IMG/VR virus record: IMGVR_UViG_2681813201_000018
Coordinates: 1 to 31,647 of that record
Origin: a virus
Lineage: Duplodnaviria; Heunggongvirae; Uroviricota; Caudoviricetes
Reading direction: 5' to 3' (one strand)
DNA length: 31,647 nucleotides
The stretch's first letter is position 1; each line of letters opens with the position of its first letter. Position numbers: made by a program. Shown piece after piece: positions 15,001 through 21,000 of this stretch.

Positions 15001-18000
15001 CCAAAATCAATGATGTATCGTAATGGTCGAAAGGCAATTTTTTTACCGATGAGGGTAAGTGACATTATGGGAAATGATAAACTGCTGGATGAATTGCGAG
15101 TCAGAGCATCCTGTTAGTATTGGCATTAATTCTGTTATACTACATAACGGGCTGAACACCCATTCTACTGCGCCAGCGGAGAACTACGATGGCGCATATA
15201 CAACTGGTCAAACAAACCTCTTCCGGATTACTTCTCCCGGCGACGCCGGAGAGTTGCGATTTTTTGCATCAAATCAAAATAGGTGAGTGGATACACGCGG
15301 ACTTTAAGCGAGTGCGTAACTACGCGTTCCACAAGCGTTTTTTCAAACTCCTGCAACTGGGATTCGATTACTGGACTCCGGTCGGTGGGGCGATCACGCC
15401 TCGCGAACGAAAACTGGTATCAGGCTTCGTTGATTACCTGTGCGAATCAGTAGGTCGGGAACACACTCCAGCCCTGAGTGATGCCGCAGAGCAATACCTT
15501 AATACAGTTGCGACATGCAGAACCCGGGATACGGCATTGCTAAAGTCGTTTGACGCTTTCCGCGAGTGGGTAACCATTCAGGCCGGATTTTACACCGAGC
15601 ATTTTTATCCGGACGGTAGCCGTGGGCGCAGGGCGAAATCCATCGCGTTTGCGAATATGGACGAAACCGAGTTTCAGCAGGTTTATAAATCTGTGCTGAA
15701 TGTACTGTGGAACTGGATCCTGTTCCGTAAATTTTCCTCTCCGGAACAAGTCGAAAATGTGGCCGCGCAGCTACTGGAGTTTGCGTAATGGTGGATTTAC
15801 GTAAAGCGGCAAAAGGTCAGATGTGTACAGTCAGAATTCCTGGCTACTGCAATCACAATCCCGAAACGTCCGTGCTGGCGCATTACAGGCTGGCGGGGAC
15901 GTGTGGAACAGCGACAAAACCACACGATATGCAGGCGGCAATTGCCTGTAGCTCGTGCCACGATTTAATCGACGGGCGGGTAAAAACCAGCGATTACACC
16001 AAAGAAGAATTGCGCCTGATGCATGCAGAAGGTGTTTTTCGCACACAAGAAATCTGGAGAAAGGAAGGTTATTTATGATTTACCCAACAAATACAGGCAA
16101 AAGCGGGGAACACCTTCGTCTCACCACGCTGGAAAGTGTCTGGATTCAGGGAAAACTGCGCATGTGGGGGCGCTGGTCGTATATTGGCGGCGGTAAGACG
16201 GGAAATATGTTCAACCAGTTGCTGACCTCTAAAAAGCTGACAAAAACGGCAATTAACGAGGCGCTCCGGAGGATGAAAAAAGCAGGTCTGGACAAACCTG
16301 AACTTGAGGCTTTTTTGCGGGATATGATCAACGGTAAGCAAAAAAGCTGGTTGGCGCATTGTACTGATGCAGAGGCGTTATGCATTGATCGTGTGATTAG
16401 TGAAGTGCTGGCAGAACACCCAGGATTGATTTGTATCCTCCGGCAACGATATGAAGGGAGGGGGATGACTAAGCGAAAAATGGCTGAATTGCTGAATGAT
16501 TCACACCCTGAGTGGTGTTACGCCACGTGCCGTAATCGCATAGATGCATGGTTGAAAATGGCAGAGTTTATGCTCTATCTGCCGATGCGTGATGCATTCT
16601 CTTCCGGGGATCTAAAAACCGTCTGTTGACTCAATCTGTTATCCGGGGCTATATTCCTCACGCGCCAGCAAAATCTGGCGTCGGGATTAGCACCCCGGAT
16701 GTTTACGGAGCGATATGAGACGCGCCCGCGTCTTTTTTCATATCGTTTGCACAGTCACATTCGCGATTTATGGCGGGCTGTGTGGGGGAGCCGAAAGGCT
16801 CGCCGGTTTCCGTACCCGGTAGTGCTAACCCTGCACAGTTCGCCACCACGATGATTGGAACATGAATGTATTGACAGTTTCATGTTAGCAGATTACATTC
16901 CTTGGCGGTGCTCAAAACACCTTTTCAGTAGCGGTTACCGCGCCCGACAGACATGCGGTTTTTTTATGTCCAGAATTCTTGGTTTATGACCGGGCGTGCG
17001 GCTAATACAATACCTGCAATGGGAATACGCCCGCCGACTACTGACGGTTTTGAGCGCCCGGTCACCCTCTCAAAAGGGGTAAATCAAAATATTCAGTAGG
17101 ACATATTCATGAACAACGTATCTGTTGAAAACCTCCCATCACTTACACATCAACACCTTCCTGTTATAACAACAGAACTTCTGGCTGAGCTGTACGGAAC
17201 AGAACGCCAGCGTTTGACAAATAATTTCAATAGAAACAAAGAGCGGTTTATTGAAGGAAAGCACTTTTTCCTGATCGAAGGCGATGAATTACGGGAACTG
17301 AAGCACAGAAACTCTTTAAGGGTTTCTGTGAAAATTGCCCGTAACGTTCGCTCCCTCATCCTCTGGACAGAACGCGGAGCAGCCCGTCACGCCAAAATGC
17401 TCGAAACCGATCAGGCGTGGGATGTGTTCGAAAAACTGGAAGACTGCTATTTCAGTCAAAAGGATCCGTCAACGCCAGTTTCATGCCAGAAAAGTTACGA
17501 CACGCGAGTTCTCTGTTATCAGCAAGGCGGTGTCACTGTTTCCACAATTCAGTTGCGGGATGATGATATTGTTATTTCCCTTGAGTCATGGCTGGAACTG
17601 GCGAGAGCCAATGGTTGGTTTGTTGTTCGCAGAGATAAACTGGTGGAAAGGCTGATGCAGCTTTAAAAAGTTCTTGCAATTTTAGCCATAAACTGCTCCA
17701 ATTCCGGTACGCTTCGCAAAGCTGTATCGCGAGGCGAACCAAGCGCATGAACTTTACCAGAACCCGCCATTGAGCGGGTTTTTTATTGCGGAATTAATTA
17801 CGGACCGTTATTATTCTGCTCCCGGCCCTTTAGCTCAGTGGTGAGAGCGAGCGACGCATAATCGCCAGGTCGCTGGTTCGAATCCAGTACAACGCGCCAC
17901 ACTTATTTTCCCTGGCTCGCTTTTGCGGGCCTTTTTTTTAAATGTCTCACAATTCAGGCGGTTGACTGTTGTCTGGTTTGCGGGGAGTTTGTTAAAAGAA

Positions 18001-21000
18001 ACTGGCATGGTGAATCCCCCTGTGCGGAGGGGCAATCAGCGAGTAGGTATATGGGATAATCGCGGATTCAGGTGCTGGTACTGAATTCACCGGGAGGCAC
18101 CCGGCACCATGCAAGAAAAAGAATGTGCATGCAAACATGCCCCTCTCCGGAGGGGCATTTTTTATGGGTAAAAAATGCCCGAATGGGTTCGGGCAATAGC
18201 ATGAGATACTGATATTGTTGTGTTGTTATCGTGTGGATTTTAACCAGGGTTTATCAGGCTGCGCAACTGCGTGGCCTTTTTTCATTTCTTGGGCTGTAGT
18301 CCCCGTGTGTCATTCAGGCTTCCGGACTACAGCCCACTCCATATCTGATTTAATACACTATCCCGGCCGGGAGGAATAATGACATTTAAACATTATGATG
18401 TTGTCAGGGCGGCGTCGCCGTCAGACCTTGCTGATGCACTTGCGCAAAAAATTCGTGAAGGATGGCAACCATATGGTGGGCCGTTTTCTTCGTATACGGA
18501 TGATGGCGCAGCACTTATTCAGGCGATTGTCGCAGAAGGTGATGTGAGCACACCTGTTGTGGTGAAGCCGACAGGTGGAGAAGGTGCAGTAATCAGCGCC
18601 ACCAGCGACCCCGGGTATTACTTTGTTGTGGTTCTGGCAGGGCAGTCAAACGGCATGTCGTATGGTGAAGGTCTTCCGCTGCCGGAGACATATGACCGTC
18701 CGGACCCGCGCATTAAGCAGCTGGCGCGTCGCAGTACGGTGACACCGGGCGGTGTCGCCTGTAAATATAACGACATCATTCCGGCGGACCATTGTCTGCA
18801 TGATGTGCAGGACATGAGCCGTCTTAACCATCCGAAAGCGGACCTGTCAAAGGGGCAGTACGGAACCGTGGGGCAGGGGCTGCATATCGCCAAAAAACTG
18901 CTGCCGTTTATACCGGCGAATGCGGGCATTCTGCTGGTTCCGTGCTGTCGTGGTGGTTCAGCGTTCACCACCGGAGCTGATGGCACATACAGTGACGCGA
19001 GTGGTGCCTCGGAGAATTCAACCCGCTGGGGTGTGGACAAGCCGCTGTATAAGGACCTTATCGGTCGAACAAAAGCAGCACTGAAGAAGAATCCGAAAAA
19101 TGTGCTGTTTGCCGTGGTGTGGATGCAGGGGGAATTTGATTTTGGCGGTACGCCGGTAAATCACGCCGCACAGTTTGGTGCGCTGGTTGATAAATTCCGT
19201 GCAGACCTGGCGGATATGGCAGGCCAGTGCGTCGGTGGCTCTGCTGGCGGTGTTCCCTGGATATGCGGGGACACGACGTATTTCTGGAAGCAGAAGAACG
19301 AATCCACGTACCAGACGGTGTACGGCAGCTATAAAAACAAAACGGAAAAGAATATCCATTTCGTACCGTTCATGACCGATGAGAACGGGGTGAATGTGCC
19401 GACGAACAAACCGGAAGAAGACCCGGACATTCCGGGTATCGGATATTACGGTTCGAAATGGCGTGACAGCTCAGCCACCTGGACGTCACAGGACAGGGCG
19501 AGCCATTTCAGCGCCTGGGCACGCCGTGGGATTATTTCCGACCGTCTGGCAACGGCGATTTTGCGCCATGCGGGAAGAGTGGCGCTAAACGCGGGGGCAT
19601 CATCGACAGTATCAGAGGTGCGCCCGTCATCGCCTTCCGGTGCAGAAGCCACAGGCGTCACAACACTGCTCTCTTACCTTGCCAGCGAGTCAGAGGGAAG
19701 CCTGAAAGTACAGGGATGGTCAGCCAGTGGCGGCAGGGCAGAAGTGGTCAGCGATGCGGAGGGAACCGGAGGTAAGGCAGTGAAGCTGACCAAGGAAGCC
19801 GGTAAAAGCAGCTGGGTGCTGGAGTACGCCGCGGGCAACGGTGCGGCTCTGTTACAGAAAGGGGGGCAGATTCGCTGCCGCTTTAAGGTTTCGGGAGCGC
19901 TGGCTGCGAACCAGTATGTTATGGCGTTTTACTGGCCGGTATCTTCACTGCCACAGGGCGTTGCCCTGACCGGAGACGGGGGGAATAACCTGCTGGCAGC
20001 GTTCTACATCCAGACAGATGCAAAAGACCTGAATGTGATGTACCACAATGCGAAAGTGGCGACAAACAACCTGAAACTGGGAACCTTTGGCGCATTTGAT
20101 AACGAATGGCATACGCTGGCTTTCCGCTTTGCCGGGAATAACAGCCTGCAGGTGGCGCCGGTTATTGATGGTCAGGATGGCACACCGTTCACGCTGACGC
20201 AGTCACCGGTCAGTGCCTTTGCGGCGGATAAACTGCATGTGACAGACATTACCAGGAATGCGACTTACCCGGTGCTGATTGACAGCATTGCGGTGGAAGT
20301 GAACAGCACAGACACTGCGGCATGATAAAAAAAACCGCCAGCGACAGGAATGGACGCTGGCGGTGGTAATACCTATGGAGAAAAAATAAAGGAACGATAC
20401 TTTCGTGCTCTGGTTTTTTAAATGAAAACAGTTCTTATTGTCAACAATAACGGAAAGAAATTATGACATTTCTGAACCAGTTAATGCTGTACTTCTGTAC
20501 GGTGGTCTGTGTGCTGTATCTCCTTTCGGGTGGGTACAGGGCCATGCGTGACTTCTGGCGCAGACAGATTGACAAAAGGGCCGCTGAGAAAATCAGCGCC
20601 AGTCAGTCAGCCGGAAGCAAACCCGAAGAGCCGCTCATTTAGCGGCAACTTTCTTAATCACATCTTTCGACGAGAAAATCCCATGTCAGAAATTACATCC
20701 TTGGTCACTGCTGAAGCAGTGAAGGAAGTCCTGCGCTCTGAAGAAGTCCGGAGCGCACTGAAACAGAAACTTCGCCATAACCTGGAAGCGCGTCTTGATG
20801 CAGAAGTGGATGCCATTCTGGATGAACTGCTGGGCGCACCGGCAGCTCCGGAGCCGGAAGGCATCGCGGGTGAGGGGAGTGCTTCAGACAGCGGTGACCC
20901 CACACCGGACAGCGACATGATGATGTAAGCATGCGTCAGGGACCATCGGTGTGTGCCGGTGGTCTTTTTTATTGTTGTGAGCTTCCGGATTGCGGGAGGC

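Follow-up and report, generated by a model that had tools for sequence, protein, structure and literature searches.

The apparent empty toxin slot of an stx-free lambdoid prophage is most probably a closed cargo junction next to a known small RNA module

Introduction

What stands in the place of the Shiga toxin genes in a prophage that has the late gene order of an Stx-converting phage and no stx? The question is raised by a 31,647-nucleotide stretch of DNA, positions 1 to 31,647 of the virus record IMGVR_UViG_2681813201_000018 (Caudoviricetes), which was analysed over its whole length and is referred to below as the window. A first-pass annotation, made from the sequence alone, had described there the order Q, transfer RNA (tRNA), gap, nanS-p, lysis and had taken the gap as an empty toxin slot, belonging either to a stx-negative relative of the Stx-converting phages or to the ancestral state. 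The window matches, at 99.9% identity, a prophage of Escherichia coli O157:H7 strain Z1813, whose annotation supplies the gene order; the prophage is lambda-like, lies beside yebY/ryeAB and is a variant of the Sakai prophage Sp10. We conclude with high confidence that this is a stx-free lambdoid prophage whose cargo site is closed, and that the 479-bp "gap" is a known small RNA (sRNA) module, STnc100 plus AgvB. Judged by sequence, the same module lies downstream of stx in the Stx phages. The architecture is common and has already been described (Tree et al. 2014, PMC4104026).

Results

Two convergent sRNA genes are predicted in the gap

The distance between the tRNA-like sequence and the open reading frame (ORF) of 648 amino acids at 18379-20325 is 479 bp, in line with the roughly 480 bp noted at first. 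However, the interval is not the unassigned DNA that it had been taken for, as Rfam finds in it two complete families. On the plus strand, an STnc100-family sRNA gene of the EcOnc27/sRNA103 type spans 17976-18169 (RF02076; 141.8 bits against a gathering score of 47, covering model positions 1-206 of 206). On the minus strand, the anti-sRNA AgvB, a sponge of GcvB, spans 18170-18231 with its terminator at 18195-18176 (RF02702; 96.5 bits against a gathering score of 56, positions 1-62 of 62, with every consensus position matched). The two genes thus converge, STnc100 ending at 18169 and AgvB at 18170, in the interval between the cargo junction described below and nanS-p.

The first-pass annotation had also singled out two hairpins containing CGGAGGGGCA. 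The window has exactly two copies of this sequence, at 18025 and 18148, each within a real hairpin; both hairpins therefore stand, but the coordinates first assigned to them covered the 3' halves only, the true spans being 18017-18032 and 18137-18158 plus a T-run. The former is the first stem-loop of STnc100 and the latter, with its T-run reaching 18164, the Rho-independent terminator of the same RNA. The STnc100 of phage 933W scores higher (207.7 bits), because the central region is shorter in the window, and the true 5' end of the gene is uncertain, possibly lying near 18005.

The identity of the second gene can be followed base by base. Its 62 nucleotides are an exact copy of a sequence on the minus strand of Sakai Sp10 (L012 2921-2982), the prophage to which Tree et al. 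mapped AgvB1, also called EcOnc01a (PMC4104026 and its supplement). The CA-rich 5' seed holds the motif CACAACA at nucleotide 10, and nucleotides 2-21 pair with positions 66-85 (R1) of MG1655 GcvB at -19.4 kcal/mol, a value reached by 17 of 1000 shuffled sequences. The fold of the RNA has a z-score of -3.75. A further terminator-like hairpin with a T-run follows on the plus strand between the sRNA pair and nanS-p (18256-18283; terminator scan, -14.9 kcal/mol, z = -4.25) and is kept in 933W, BP-4795 and 12E129; the nanS-p leader comes next. The complement of the hairpin overlaps the -35 element of a weak candidate promoter for AgvB (TTGCGC-18-TAAAAT), whose hexamers agree with the consensus at 8 of 12 positions.

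This arrangement is in keeping with published work. Tree et al. (2014, PMC4104026) reported such convergent sRNA pairs 3' of PR', at the site where morons are inserted, each pair lying between the moron and a conserved ORF further downstream; the prophages carrying them are Sp3, 4, 5, 9, 10, 11, 15 and 17 (PMC4104026). The Hfq-binding sRNA EcOnc27/sRNA103, located downstream of stx2B, overlaps STnc100 (PMC12711010; PMC12370729). We find the STnc100 family in the equivalent position, 3' of stx2B or stx1B, in 933W, 2851, 12E129 and BP-4795; the anti-sRNA beside it is AsxR in 933W and AgvB-like in BP-4795.

Two side observations concern the family itself. PGAP annotates neither STnc100 nor AgvB and places a truncated "hypothetical protein" pseudogene coding sequence (CDS) over STnc100 on the minus strand (window 17995-18138, equivalent to L001 10396-10539), a pattern that is repeated in many genomes. 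Phage vB_EcoS-640R1 carries two tandem STnc100-family copies (L006 2990-3183 and 3459-3647; 138 and 132 bits) between the tRNA and the downstream genes, which may reflect a duplicated sRNA module or, alternatively, a PasD-like paralogue.

Could the gap instead code for small proteins and not for RNAs? Five ORFs of 44-54 amino acids are present in it (including 17923-18084, 18072-18212 and 18215-18379, or on the minus strand), the PGAP pseudo-CDS at 17995-18138 on the minus strand could be read in the same way, and ORF42 of BP-4795 is annotated in the same region. However, the whole gap is explained by two full-length covariance-model matches and three terminators, the insertions and deletions among homologous loci are not multiples of three, and PGAP flags its own CDS as incomplete; in addition, the sRNAs have been documented experimentally in Sakai and EDL933 (PMC4104026; PMC12711010). 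Small-protein coding was rejected on the grounds of the RNA models covering the gap and the frame-breaking indels, and we consider it extremely improbable.

The toxin position is a closed point junction

If the gap is filled by sRNA genes, where would the toxin have been? Past the tRNA-like sequence lies a Rho-independent terminator on the plus strand (17914-17939; terminator scan, fold -13.8 kcal/mol, z = -3.6), which by alignment is the element annotated in 933W as the terminator upstream of the stx genes. Its T-run is fused straight to "TTAAATGTCTCACAATTCAGG" at ~17938-17942, and this is the unoccupied cargo junction. On the left, 17784-17887 aligns with the pT promoter region and ileZ of 933W (92%), 17868-17940 corresponds to the 3' end of argO together with the terminator that precedes stx2A (90% identity in 933W, 97% in 2851), and 17896-17937 is 100% identical in many Stx2a and Stx2c phages. 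On the right, 17943-18400 corresponds to the 933W DNA that runs from 42 nucleotides past stx2B to the start of L0105 (72%), 18005-18400 matches the Stx1 phage BP-4795 (80%), and in the lambda-like Stx2a phage Stx2_12E129_yecE (12E129) the match continues from 17943 to 21368 at 93%. The first-pass annotation would have given up its reading had the flanks shown no homology to stx-flanking DNA; the match is clear on both sides and at base level.

The stx2AB cassette of 1332 bp, absent from the window, sits at 17940|17943 in all three Stx2 phages (break points 933W L003 2412|3745, 2851 L008 4545|5879 and 12E129 L011 2846|4179), the segments missing from the window being L003 2413-3744, L008 4546-5878 and L011 2847-4178, respectively. 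Because the same 1332 bp are missing relative to all three, the toxin position is a point junction at ~17938-17942: the notion of an empty slot holds in that the position is unoccupied, but not in its extent, as the slot is this junction and not the 480-bp gap. The absence of stx that had been noted is borne out, since tblastn with the A and B subunits of Stx1 and Stx2 returned nothing better than E = 0.05 in the window, and the genes and cassettes of stx1 and stx2 had no significant match there by blastn. The window thus has the late backbone of a Stx-converting prophage (tRNAs, terminator, [stx], sRNA pair, nanS-p, lysis), with base-level homology of the flanks, and carries neither stxA nor stxB. 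Since both flanks match stx-flanking DNA, the prophage is a stx-negative relative with its toxin position unoccupied.

The adjoining tRNA is a non-functional chimera

The tRNA of the proposed gene order had been taken as intact, a view that does not survive closer inspection. Alignment with 933W and Nil3 resolves 17824-17899 (plus strand) into an ileZ::argO chimera. Its 5' part, as far as the T-arm, comes from ileZ, and the remainder, T-loop to CCA, from argO, the crossover lying in the common sequence CTGGTTC; argN has been deleted entirely, along with the 3' end of ileZ and the beginning of argO. In agreement with this, blastn-short places ileZ 1-64 at 17824-17887 and argO 46-77 at 17868-17899, and these are the only pieces found, with no remnant of argN in the whole window. 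Of the argN/argO remnants for which a search had been suggested, that of argO therefore exists, as the 3' third of the "tRNA", and that of argN does not.

Neither the paired acceptor stem nor the conserved U33 of a functional ileZ (tRNA-Ile2/CAU) is present. Only 2 of the 7 acceptor-stem pairs are possible, U33 in the anticodon loop is replaced by G, and the fold (z = -0.97, against -4.03 for ileZ) is no better than that of shuffled sequences; for these reasons we conclude that the tRNA is a non-functional deletion chimera. ARAGORN reports no tRNA in the window or at the Z1813 locus, which rules out an intact tRNA at 17824-17899, and the Rfam tRNA model matches partially (positions 7-64, 37.3 bits, versus 72 bits for intact ileZ). 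PGAP/RefSeq labels the chimera tRNA-Met.

The same 76-nucleotide allele recurs as exact matches in the O121:H19 strain 16-9255 and in strain 155. The chimera of strain Jnd12 (L005 2536-2610) has another crossover point, and such tRNA deletions have therefore arisen more than once; "tRNA-Met" entries without tRNA-Arg among the annotated genome matches are an indirect sign of further chimeric arrays. A literature search on ileZ, argN and argO combined returned nothing in the collection of papers that it covered. In O121:H19 16-9255 (L014 601-951 and 1872 onward), a truncated ORF6N antirepressor and a frameshifted nanS-p accompany a chimeric tRNA, a junction and an sRNA module that are all kept at 97% identity.

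The closed junction is widespread and its origin may be mosaic

How common is the closed state, and did it arise by loss of the toxin? A 100-bp probe spanning the junction (window 17896-17995) was compared with 5426 complete E. coli genomes, in 937 of which the junction is uninterrupted (813 records at ≥99% identity). In the phage collection, the same probe found an uninterrupted junction in Nil3 only: in the Stx2a and Stx2c phages the match is confined to 17896-17937, at 100%, and in JLK-2012-type phages to 17935-17995. Different cargos precede the same right boundary elsewhere, namely tciA-tciB in JLK-2012, tciA in Sakai Sp10, 642 bp with a DUF3927 ORF in strain Jnd12, and stx1 in BP-4795. 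A second type of closed junction was found in the F3398 prophage (L007 2784-2860 versus window 17900-17945), in which 29 extra nucleotides (ATTACAGGAAAGACACCGGACAGTGAAATG) stand between the terminator and TTAAATG. Lastly, the decamer TATCTGCGCC directly follows the terminator of the tRNA cluster in the stx2 loci of 933W (L003 2410-2420) and 2851 (L008 4543-4553) and in the tciAB locus of JLK-2012 (L009 2752-2762), whereas the closed junction of the window is without it.

One possible history is recent loss, in which a Stx2-phage ancestor suffered a precise deletion of stx2AB between the T-run of the terminator and a T-run upstream of the STnc100 module. The flanks do meet exactly at the site of the stx2 cassette, lambda-like Stx2a phages share 93-97% identity with the late region, the decamer present in stx2- and tciAB-carrying phages is missing, and the T-run at the junction provides microhomology. 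Yet the window sequence that adjoins the junction on its right shares only 72-80% identity with the right flanks of Stx2 phages, versus 94-99% with the alleles of Nil3, JLK-2012 and Jnd12; the anti-sRNA of the window is AgvB and not the AsxR of 933W-type Stx2a phages; the same junction is present at ≥99% identity in the 813 records, some of them from strains not labelled as Shiga toxin-producing E. coli; and no stx remnant is left. Recent loss from a Stx2 phage is unlikely, and we give this history little credence.

The opposite history, in which the closed junction is the original backbone and stx1, stx2, tciAB and other morons were inserted later, agrees with an empty junction that is very common and highly uniform, with the nearly identical right boundary of the differing cargos (window 17935-17943) and with the moron concept cited by Tree et al. 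(PMC4104026). Against it, F3398 has a second and different empty junction, and the T-run could be the microhomology at which a Stx2c-type left flank was joined to a JLK-type right flank. Moreover, the junction of the window looks derived, because the cargo-bearing loci share a 10-nucleotide extension of the left flank that it lacks. An ancestral empty state is a possibility that we regard as rather doubtful, and these data do not tell it apart from a derived one.

The most economical inference is that the junction is mosaic and arose by recombination. A more specific and tentative proposal, which we put forward with about the same reserve as the ancestral state, is that the boundary between the T-run of the tRNA-cluster terminator and the start of the STnc100 module ("TTTTTAAAT...CACAATTCAG") is a discrete, reusable joint for cassette exchange, at which stx2, stx1, tciAB, the DUF3927 segment or nothing would alternate through T-run microhomology. 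Were this true, the closed junction would be an exchange product of a Stx2c-type left flank and a JLK-2012-type right flank, and it would become possible to reconstruct, and to test, the step through which lambdoid backbones acquire and release toxin cassettes.

Genes flanking the junction and the setting of the prophage

Downstream, the first protein gene past the slot is nanS-p (18379-20325, plus strand), predicted to encode a prophage sialate O-acetylesterase of 648 amino acids. It combines an N-terminal DUF1737, a SASA esterase domain and a C-terminal DUF6645 in Pfam and, by sequence, appears close to a characterised allele, being 92% identical to L0105 of 933W over 648 amino acids. Genes for DUF1378 and DUF826 proteins, holin, lysozyme and Rz are annotated after it, so nanS-p is followed by lysis genes, just as had been proposed. 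The presence of nanS-p in non-Stx prophages has been reported before (PMC10462455, PMC8065619).

Upstream, the Q-like late antiterminator (16075-16629, plus strand) is of the DUF1133 type, as is ECs_1958 of Sakai Sp10. Its Pfam score for DUF1133 is 360 bits, the match to Phage_antitermQ is marginal (26.5 bits against a cut-off of 26), and PHROG 753, "anti-termination protein Q-like", is found at E = 5.5e-82; the stretch 15189-16519 is 91.5% identical to the Sp10 region that ends in its "phage antiterminator". All members of the order Q, tRNA, gap, nanS-p and lysis are thus present and in sequence, but Q and the tRNA are separated by ~1.1 kb of a P1 immI-like antirepressor module (16649-17666, plus strand; Rfam, Pfam and PHROG). 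Above their Rfam gathering scores, the module contains c4-a1b1 (16649-16701), an isrK-like RNA (16662-16738, with a terminator at 16717-16734), the C4 antisense RNA (16766-16850) and an sRNA-Xcc1-like element (16988-17071), followed by the ORF6N antirepressor (17109-17666; Pfam ORF6N, PHROG 2379 "anti-repressor"). The module is absent from Sp10, 90 bp of which are replaced in the window by 16520-17664. From the promoter-like site at 16626-16655 and the terminator at 16717-16734, an isrK-like leader RNA of ~77 nucleotides would be expected.

Two places are candidates for PR'/tR', either the pair just named (promoter-like 16626-16655 and terminator 16717-16734) or the segment 17665-17787, which is shared with Sp10. 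The latter belongs to a longer match (17665-17887, equivalent to Sp10 L012 1547-1769, 94% identity) that in Sp10 lies directly 3' of the Q gene, and it contains a terminator-like hairpin, CCCGC/GCGGG with a T-run (17763-17784, plus strand), recognised by inspection of the sequence and not listed by the consensus scan. This hairpin may be the tR' of the DUF1133-type Q.

The left arm of the prophage is Rac-like (int, xis, ralR, recET, kil), and the late and head region is lambda-like, the late region being ~97% identical to lambda-like Stx2a phages (93-97% across comparisons). Along the left arm, within window 1-7200, lie RalA/ralR (2168-2346) and, alongside recET and kil, DicF (7094-7145, minus strand); a hokD/sok pair is found at 14305-14476. 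The first bases of the window belong to chromosomal yebY. Matches to SraC/RyeA and SdsR/RyeB (462-606) run into the end of the integrase gene, a sign that the ryeAB locus was the site of integration.

Discussion

Taken together, these results support a model in which the cargo site is closed, the T-run of the tRNA-cluster terminator running straight into the start of the STnc100 module at ~17938-17942. In the lysogen, both sRNAs would be made from promoters of their own and bound by Hfq, as is known for the published identical or homologous genes. AgvB would then relieve GcvB repression of targets such as dppA, in the manner of the identical Sakai gene: AgvB has been reported to block GcvB, relieve the repression of dppA and aid growth in bovine rectal mucus (PMC4104026). 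Upon induction, Q-modified RNA polymerase would be expected to pass the successive terminators and enter nanS-p and the lysis genes.

Several points weigh against this picture. The consensus promoter scan gave no site of at least 9/12 for either sRNA, and the promoter-like hexamers found for both by manual search reach only 8/12, below the threshold of the scan. The mapped EcOnc27 coincides only partly with the Rfam boundaries of STnc100 (PMC12711010). Expression of the sRNAs in this strain is deduced from the related loci, their promoters are candidates only, and read-through by a DUF1133-type Q is assumed by analogy with lambda and 933W.

For annotation, the value of the locus is that an apparent empty toxin slot turns out to be a compact regulatory module, while the automatic annotation of the matching genome misses both sRNAs and labels a dead chimera "tRNA-Met". 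The base-level junction, along with the list of alternative cargos, provides a frame for studying the movement of stx cassettes.

Comparison with known systems

The late region of Sakai Sp10 (ECs_1956-1964) is similar in its DUF1367, DUF1364 and DUF1133-Q genes (91.5% identity), in the segment 3' of Q with the 5' region of ileZ (94%), in the identical 62-nucleotide AgvB, and in a nanS-p-type gene followed by the lysis cassette. In Sp10, unlike the window, ileZ and argO are both intact and the cargo site is occupied by tciA (TerB-like); the C4/isrK/ORF6N module after Q, the chimeric pseudo-tRNA and the closed cargo site are found in the window and not in Sp10.

The Stx2 phages 933W (AF125520), 2851 (FM180578) and Stx2_12E129_yecE (LC567842) have the same order of tRNAs, terminator, cargo, STnc100 convergent with an anti-sRNA, nanS-p and lysis, with 90-100% identity to the left flank and 72-93% to the right. 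They differ in carrying the 1332-bp stx2AB cassette, intact ileZ-argN-argO and Q types other than that of the window, and also in the partner of STnc100, as 933W has AsxR in place of AgvB and 12E129 a third partner type.

Among stx-less relatives, Nil3 (AM051322, partial) has tRNAs followed by STnc100 and the exact junction (99.5% over 17868-18060), but other sequence at the position of AgvB and three intact tRNAs. The F3398 prophage, also stx-less and with STnc100 directly after its tRNAs, matches the window in AgvB, which is identical, and in the 3' half of STnc100; it differs by intact ileZ-argN-argO and the 29 extra nucleotides at its junction. Finally, JLK-2012 (NC_049942) shares STnc100 followed by yjhS/nanS-p, from window position 17935 onward at 94% identity, whereas its tRNAs are tRNA-Asn/Thr/Gly and its cargo site is occupied by the tciA-tciB moron.

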